From: Eledone cirrhosa
Taxonomy: Eukaryota
NCBI GenBank assembly: GCA_964016885.1
Contig: OZ024740.1
Coordinates: 326,740,001-326,804,000 of the forward strand
Direction of reading: 5' to 3'
Length of the DNA stretch: 64,000 bases
This document shows, piece by piece, positions 62,662-63,333 of this stretch (position 1 is the first letter of the stretch; each line of letters opens with the position of its first letter). The position numbers and the translations under genes are program-made. A model generated the notes under the pieces. It was given only the letters and a program-made list of their open reading frames with translations, made no database searches and was not told where the DNA came from.

Positions 62662-63333
62662 ACATTATGAAGAGAGAAGAAACATTTAGATATAATTAGT
62701 AATAAAATGTATCATACCTAAACTGCTCCTAAATTCCTCGACTACGTAGTTTCGTGGCATAAACAAAAACAATATATCATAAAGATATAGAGTCCCTGCG
62801 AGGTCTGCCGACTTATCAAGAGGATACCTCATTTTGCTAGTCTCAAGAACGCGTCTACACGACGTGAGAAAGAATCCCAAAAGGCGGAGGGGGAGATAGT
62901 CACGCGATATAACGGTCGAGAAACAGAGCTAAGCCTCTTATAACCACGAAGAAAATACCACAGAGGCGGAGGGGGTATTCATACCGAGGCCGCAGAAGAG
63001 GTGGTGAAGAAGGCTAGAAGTATGAGTAATGGAAGCTTTCCAGTTGTCCCCACACCTCAAAGATTGCTCGACCAGAGGGAGTTATTAACAATATATTTAG
63101 AAACACACAGATACATGCGGACACACACATATATACATGAATGCATCCGCACCCAACTGTGAGTTAAGGGTGCCAACTTCACCGATGTTGCTCAATGAAT
63201 AACCGGGACAGACCAATTCAGTTGAACTAGACTGAACCAGTATCAGAGTTAAAAATACATTATGAAGAGAGAAGAAACATTTAGATATAATTAGTAATAA
63301 AATGTATCATACCTAAACTGCTCCTAAATTCCT
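62662..63333 (-). mobile_element. Retrozyme-like non-coding element: 595-nt unit plus ~76-nt direct terminal repeat, inserted in (TA)n
   Basis: 62662-62738 matches 63257-63333; hammerhead abuts the 3' repeat; no coding signal. Confidence 0.8.
62735..62824 (-). ncRNA. Type I hammerhead ribozyme, U3-A8 core variant
   Basis: Minus strand: TCCTC TTGATAA GTcGGCA...TGCCAC GAAA CTACGTAG TC GAGGA. Confidence 0.82.

Follow-up and report, generated by a model that had tools for sequence, protein, structure and literature searches.

A non-coding hammerhead retrozyme family of Eledone cirrhosa with two fixed, paired 3' ends, probably copied by Penelope-type machinery

The stretch of Eledone cirrhosa DNA analysed here (64,000 nt, hereafter the window) carries a copy of a non-LTR retrozyme family that numbers thousands of copies and whose insertions end at two fixed sites within (TA)n, and we consider it likely that a Hydra-type Penelope reverse transcriptase (RT) copies this family from a predicted circular RNA. 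The evidence at the level of single insertions, namely two fixed starts, paired arms and one haplotype per insertion, ties the retrozyme to Penelope machinery, and the insertion pattern favours arrays that are born by rolling reverse transcription. Because the family is young, abundant and found beside an active coding family of at least 150 copies, it can be tested directly how the Penelope tail arose and what role the hammerhead plays. Penelope elements were named as candidate movers of animal retrozymes in a 2020 paper (PMC7229834), and a 2026 preprint describes the mechanism of retrozyme insertion as remaining to be worked out (bioRxiv 10.64898/2026.07.22.740005). An initial annotation of this DNA had noticed neither the two fixed 3' ends nor the paired arms; it is for these 3' ends and for the pattern of haplotypes that the present analysis is chiefly of value.

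On the minus strand the window reads (TA)n, an insert of 672-674 nt (63333-62662/62660) and again (TA)n, the insert consisting of one 595-nt unit and 77-79 nt of a second:

62739..63333, minus strand: full retrozyme unit, 595 nt, non-coding; unit position 1 = 63333
62660..62738, minus strand: start of the second unit (positions 1-79), stopping at the short 3' end, shared (at 70-86) by 59 of 115 sampled arms; likely the site of reverse-transcription start
63086..63254, minus strand: tail (unit 80 to 243-248), between the short and long 3' ends of the family; long end, at 233-253, in 50 of 115 arms
63334..63516, no strand: (TA)n at the 5' end of the insert, a flanking run
62442..62661, no strand: (TA)n at the 3' end of the insert, a flanking run in which the neighbouring Penelope-like element also has its long end
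62735..62824, minus strand: predicted type I hammerhead (descriptor search; conservation across three subfamilies)
62824-62820 with 62739-62735, minus strand: hammerhead stem I, 5 bp (descriptor search)
62819-62813, minus strand: hammerhead core UUGAUAA, U3:A8 replacing C3:G8 (descriptor search)
62753-62750, minus strand: hammerhead GAAA (descriptor search)

The first 77-79 nt of the insert recur exactly 595 nt further on (63250-63333 against 62655-62738; 100% identity over 79 nt), and the initial annotation was right to describe a non-coding 595-nt unit that starts at a predicted hammerhead cut and repeats its first ~76 nt one unit later. With the G that follows the predicted cut numbered 0, the start of the insert is +1 or +2: the first G is absent, and the A may be a letter of the TA flank. 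Copies of the family end in partial tandem units and not in LTRs; (TA)n flanks the insert on both sides and would mask any target-site duplication, and the tail lies internally in this copy. The GC content of the unit is 0.42, below 50% as for non-LTR retrozymes. It has no coding capacity (longest ORF 48 codons), its best tblastn match to the Penelope proteins of the window has an E of 0.011, and its RNA folds with a z of -6.3, none of 100 shuffles folding as well.

The assignment as a type I hammerhead, with a conserved core that includes the 3-8 pair, three stems and an NUH site, is a prediction from the descriptor search and from conservation in the three subfamilies. The motif also has a long stem II and a palindromic stem III, its GUC site lies at 62742-62740 with the predicted cut after 62740, and it ends at the unit junction. 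An Rfam scan of 56000-64000 returned no hammerhead family even at E 10, the matches being chance ones driven by microsatellites. Core and stems are kept at 45-47 of 48 positions across the three subfamilies, against 70-81% in unit 81-506, and the core reads UUGAUAA in 131 of the 132 motifs read. The stems are maintained mostly through one-sided changes, with a two-sided change in only 1 of 27 pairs, and the consensus fold of the unit does not favour the active hammerhead form. The variant core, of which the initial annotation knew no cephalopod example, is not new: U3-A8 was already described in the Cercyon Penelope elements of Schistosoma mansoni (PMC4209133), and U3:A8 also occurs in a coding element within the window. 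Cercyon shares this core covariation and has a palindromic helix III suited to dimers, but it mostly consists of single minimal motifs in Penelope ends, whereas here a hammerhead stands in every unit of a tandem non-coding element.

In the 3.0-Gb genome, a 26-nt motif at unit 31-56 has 7,472 exact matches and unit 1-22 has 2,148, with none for either reversed control. The best genome matches to the unit are 99% identical and frequently tandem, the units being spaced 595 nt in arrays of up to 7 full units. Two older subfamilies, at ~80% and ~73% identity, share both the tandem build and the ends. Our main sample of 74 loci (115 arms) was chosen by position and not by score, and comprises 40 of the 48 clusters among the first 100 unit 1-22 matches listed, with 34 further clusters among the first 100 listed for unit 31-56. 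None of 110 loci runs directly into an RT frame; a match to a Penelope ORF occurs in 10 of them, and in 2 loci a same-strand match lies upstream of an arm with a TA run in between. An autonomous Penelope-like element carries an ORF for RT and GIY-YIG, whereas the unit has no ORF and its arms never join an RT frame without a TA run. The family is not an autonomous Penelope element, and by its sequence features it is a non-coding hammerhead tandem element of the non-LTR retrozyme kind. These loci bear out the earlier proposal of a non-coding hammerhead retro-unit moved in trans by Penelope-type machinery, and they yielded no instance of the opposing picture, in which copies with random 5' ends extend upstream into an RT ORF.

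Metazoan non-LTR retrozymes (PMC7229834; bioRxiv 10.64898/2026.07.22.740005) are likewise non-coding tandem units, each with a type I hammerhead and with GC below 50%, present in thousands of copies alongside Penelope-like elements, and a cycle from circle to tandem cDNA has been proposed for them. The unit of 595 nt compares with 150-450 nt in invertebrates (Cervera and de la Pena 2020, PMC7229834) and with up to 972 nt in the 2026 survey (Li, Clavereau and Pollet 2026, bioRxiv 10.64898/2026.07.22.740005), and its hammerhead, with U3:A8, a long stem II and a palindromic stem III, belongs to the Penelope type, whereas that of metazoan non-LTR retrozymes is of the canonical type. Among the results listed by literature searches, one of them poorly aimed, there was no paper on a cephalopod retrozyme. 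It is most improbable that the units represent the 5'-truncated ends of an autonomous but unseen Penelope element, or that they form a plain satellite whose hammerhead is dead. The layout does resemble Penelope ends, and 8 of 9 Xenopus retrozyme dimers stayed uncleaved in vitro (bioRxiv 10.64898/2026.07.22.740005), but the unit closes head to tail, holds no ORF above 48 codons and never abuts an RT frame, while the family is dispersed with fixed ends and shows one organisation throughout three subfamilies as divergent as 73% identity, the hammerhead being the best-conserved part.

The 3' ends of the 115 arms (74 loci) fall near unit 79 in 59 cases, near 243-248 in 50 and elsewhere in 6, so that 109 arms stop at one of two fixed sites, and the stretch of ~165 nt between the short and the long end is a Penelope 'tail'. 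Of the 69 classifiable insertions with two arms joined head to head, 68 combine a short with a long end. Across the young and the ~80% subfamilies this holds for all 50 classifiable independent two-armed insertions, made up of 22 in the first sample (a duplicated locus counted once), 15 in the second and 13 in the ~80% subfamily, with 9 more unclassifiable (4 in the first sample, 5 in the ~80% subfamily). A hand count in the ~73% subfamily gave 18 of 19, with one unclassifiable insertion and one long+long pair (L189/L198), the sole such pair; the samples of the ~80% and ~73% subfamilies were drawn with a query favouring long ends, and test for long+long pairs but barely for short+short ones. 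An inverted, 5'-truncated arm and a tail at one end only, the marks of a Penelope-type insertion, are thus found in the retrozyme family. Some arm pairs have no sequence in common, as at L124, where the arms (580-79 and 149-243) overlap nowhere, and in such pairs one arm is therefore not a fold-back copy of the other. Fold-back, which has been proposed for the junction palindromes of Penelope elements (PMC3846280), may contribute at the near-palindromic junctions of a few loci (L041, L042, L058).

Penelope-like insertions (PMC8557442; PMC3846280; PMC11167929) likewise show partial tandems, 5' truncation, an inverted 5' arm, a one-end tail, AT-rich targets and two RT start sites downstream of the hammerhead, and for an anole Penelope element two RT start sites were found in vitro to delimit the tail (PMC11167929). 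Unlike these insertions, the retrozyme has no ORF, both of its arms can span several units, its short+long pairing is strict where counted, and its tail measures ~165 nt against the 30-40 bp described, at one end only, for Penelope (PMC8557442; PMC3846280). No description of fixed paired 3' ends or of inverted arms was found in the parts consulted of PMC7229834, where the word 'inverted' does not occur, and of the 2026 preprint. By eye, ACTC stands ~5-9 nt past the short end in four elements of the window (7128-7230, 16845-17050, 38720-38840, 62243-62444) and in the retrozyme (unit 80-95), with GCTC in the older subfamilies; it is a possible shared start signal.

What is observed, namely hammerhead units in tandem, two fixed ends that lie in (TA)n and pair strictly, 5' ends at random positions and a single haplotype per insertion, would fit a scheme in which a read-through RNA is cut, probably via dimeric folding of the palindromic stem III, and is then ligated to a circle, as other retrozymes suggest. 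A Penelope endonuclease would cut (TA)n, and its RT would start at unit ~79 or ~245, the positions of the two observed ends. Both DNA ends would be primed on the same RNA, and synthesis would roll round until random 5' truncation, followed by head-to-head joining of the arms; a small share of templates would be linear RNAs with a cleaved 5' end. Against this explanation counts the report that hammerhead cleavage is dispensable for insertion of the anole Penelope element (PMC11167929). More tentatively, we entertain the idea that a Penelope RT dimer primes both cut (TA)n ends on a single circular ribozyme RNA, at its two fixed sites, and rolls from both. If so, retrozyme arrays would be born multi-unit and two-armed in a single event, each subunit would have its own start site, which would explain the Penelope tail and inverted arm generally, and the 595-nt circle would be a minimal test substrate.

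The template itself can be approached through the differences between units, which amount to 0.38% within an arm, 0.35% between arms and 2.0% between loci, the last figure mixing subfamilies. At sites that are polymorphic in the family, the units agree throughout in 37 of 43 loci, and differences number 7 in 18,348 positions against 1.07% between loci. Taking as private an allele that is private among the 74 loci sampled out of some thousands, 28 locus-private alleles (18 loci) are shared by all overlapping units, 20 of these by both arms; at L137 three private alleles occur in all 7-8 units. Where at least three units overlap, private alleles lie in one unit (25), in all (12) or in some (2); among 17 multi-unit loci, 3 had a closer unit at another locus than among their own. 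This allele distribution suggests that an insertion usually arises in one event, with a single haplotype as the source of both arms and all units, a pattern that a predicted monomeric circle, copied round and round, would account for most simply. Circular RNAs have been shown for other retrozymes (PMC7229834). A contig of ~620 nt closes at the 595-nt joint in 2 of 4 sequencing runs of unrecorded kind, and this joint is uninformative on circles because tandem DNA gives the same one.

A competing account would do without the circle: the templates would be linear multimeric read-through RNAs of genomic arrays, sometimes 5'-cleaved, and long arrays would be renewed by expansion at the DNA level. 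The RNA of a young homogeneous array would give a similar haplotype pattern, a Penelope RT used unprocessed RNA in vitro (PMC11167929), and the 2026 preprint, whose phylogeny links retrozymes to Penelope ends, proposes local amplification by unequal crossover (bioRxiv 10.64898/2026.07.22.740005). We nevertheless regard this account as unlikely, since the private alleles, found in one unit or in all and rarely in some, make it look as if the arrays were born in one step, the units of one insertion almost never differ in alleles that are common in the family, and two inverted arms cannot be homogenised by crossover. One array (G000:C4:81321752-81326646; L022, L006, L013) has seven full units in which two alleles alternate at unit 387 and 504 and an allele at unit 120 recurs with period 4, and an eighth, partial unit that breaks the pattern; a dimer or tetramer circle could have produced the alternation, or a later crossover.

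The 5' ends of the 115 sampled arms spread over the whole unit, and 51 of the arms are longer than one unit. One arm begins within 2 nt of the cut site, against 142 read-throughs of intact junctions, and it is very improbable that the family is copied mainly from ribozyme-cleaved RNA with its 5' ends at the cut: as a rule this is refuted, and it stands for a minority class only. The initial annotation had argued for an RT template generated by ribozyme cleavage, which may hold for the window copy and a small class and fails as a general rule, and of the two features that it would have tabulated across the genome, tandem copies are plentiful (up to 7 units) and ends at the cut site are not.

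Ends flanked by TA give a finer picture. In the window's own subfamily (2,148 motif matches), 11 of the 28 loci with such ends in -30..+1 start at 0/+1, 10 of them independent. When unique loci were counted by hand among the first 100 matches listed for each motif over a matched span (C1 to C3:54.5 Mb), TA-flanked ends numbered 22 in -40..-14, 6 in -13..-1, 7 at 0/+1 and 21 in +2..+14. Half of these 56 ends lie in the 15 nt from 0 to +14, against 28 in the 40 nt upstream (p 2.5e-4), a density ~2.7-fold higher just downstream of the cut than upstream (p 0.004 with the site left out), in counts that come from two different motifs and under a gap limit that slightly favours downstream ends. A tenfold step at the cut was rejected, the two motifs differing 3.5-fold in genome count, and the position sample with all junction types (13 ends in unit 1-60, 9 in 541-595) is too small for a step. 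The 7 of 56 ends at 0/+1 exceed a flat spread (p 0.004), and 3 of them start exactly at G, where no TA microhomology exists, both of which speak for cleaved templates; yet this peak is no taller than the microhomology peaks at +8 (7 loci) and near -22, and against the downstream positions alone it is not significant (p 0.07). At L078 both arms stop at +1 and +4 after one full unit. The density step, which with L078 would also suit linear multimers without a circle, indicates that a small share of templates likely consists of linear RNAs with a cleaved 5' end.

For the window copy, a start within ~3 nt of the site had a prior chance of ~0.5% per copy, yet the family has thousands of copies. The initial annotation had offered, as one source of this 5' end, a circle copied slightly more than once; a circle provides no stop at the ligated junction, so this origin fails, and the end is explained by a 5'-cleaved linear dimer or by truncation at TA microhomology. 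We lean towards a 5'-cleaved linear RNA as the origin of this copy of one unit plus 79 nt; otherwise its 5' end is a chance truncation at TA microhomology, and the baseline density of 0.7-1.6 ends per nt, against 3.5 at the site, gives plain truncation a 20-45% chance. Elsewhere in the unit, two clusters of 5' ends (L031-L070, L106-L139), one at unit 158-178 by a strong hairpin (unit 160-185) and one at unit 340-440, suggest RT pause sites.

The neighbouring Penelope-like element offers a candidate kind of helper:

40604..62444, no strand: autonomous Penelope-like element, Hydra type; 7.2-kb units in tandem (minus strand) and an inverted arm at 55870-62444

This element has an intact RT-GIY-YIG frame of 830 codons at 45066-47555, two ends 137 nt apart, and a hammerhead-like motif near 62109-62243 with a GUU site and a stem II of ~100 nt. 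The translation of the frame, with motifs read by eye and compared with section 11 of PMC8557442, has RWK-like, DKT and CxCX5C motifs along with a GIY-YIG at the C-terminus, which together with the (TA)n targets place it in the Hydra clade; a Pfam search of three Penelope proteins gave no match. Its family has at least 150 copies with an identical N-terminus (the 150 scored of 9,378 first-look candidates, all identical over 86 residues), most of these 150 with the 830-codon frame intact, and from such sequence identity it appears very active. The Hydra-clade, C-terminal EN+ Penelope-like elements (PMC8557442) are coding, whereas the retrozyme is non-coding, and clearly homologous ends were not found in any family. 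A genome search by way of two divergent relatives, together with a protein search, found no autonomous element with the ends of the unit; the two relatives, tried as autonomous partners, were rejected when both proved to be further non-coding subfamilies, and the matches scored in the protein search all belonged to the family of the neighbour. Between the tails of the retrozyme and the neighbour there is a marginal likeness (shuffle p 0.01-0.04; p 0.37 for the sister subfamily). Retrozyme copies often occupy the TA run that ends a Penelope element (L017, L044, L068, L079, L119, L120), as in the window, and this co-occurrence shows a common target choice.

Four elements of the window (2584-7148, 14223-17040, 36042-38840, 40604-62444) have the same layout of hammerhead, short end and long end, with tails of ~80-160 nt. 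That at 2584-7148, of Hydra type, has inverted arms and a tail of ~83 nt, and stem III of its U3:A8 hammerhead is long. Fragments of LINE-type RT frames, unrelated to the retrozyme, lie at 24789-26701, 27348-28005 and 19825-20289. Further hammerhead motifs of the window (14223-14495, 16632-16905, 36081-38720, 30040-30130, 11114-11144, 8816-8854) stand mostly at the ends of elements with paired arms, and some have an extra core base (CUGAUGAA, CUGAAUGA).
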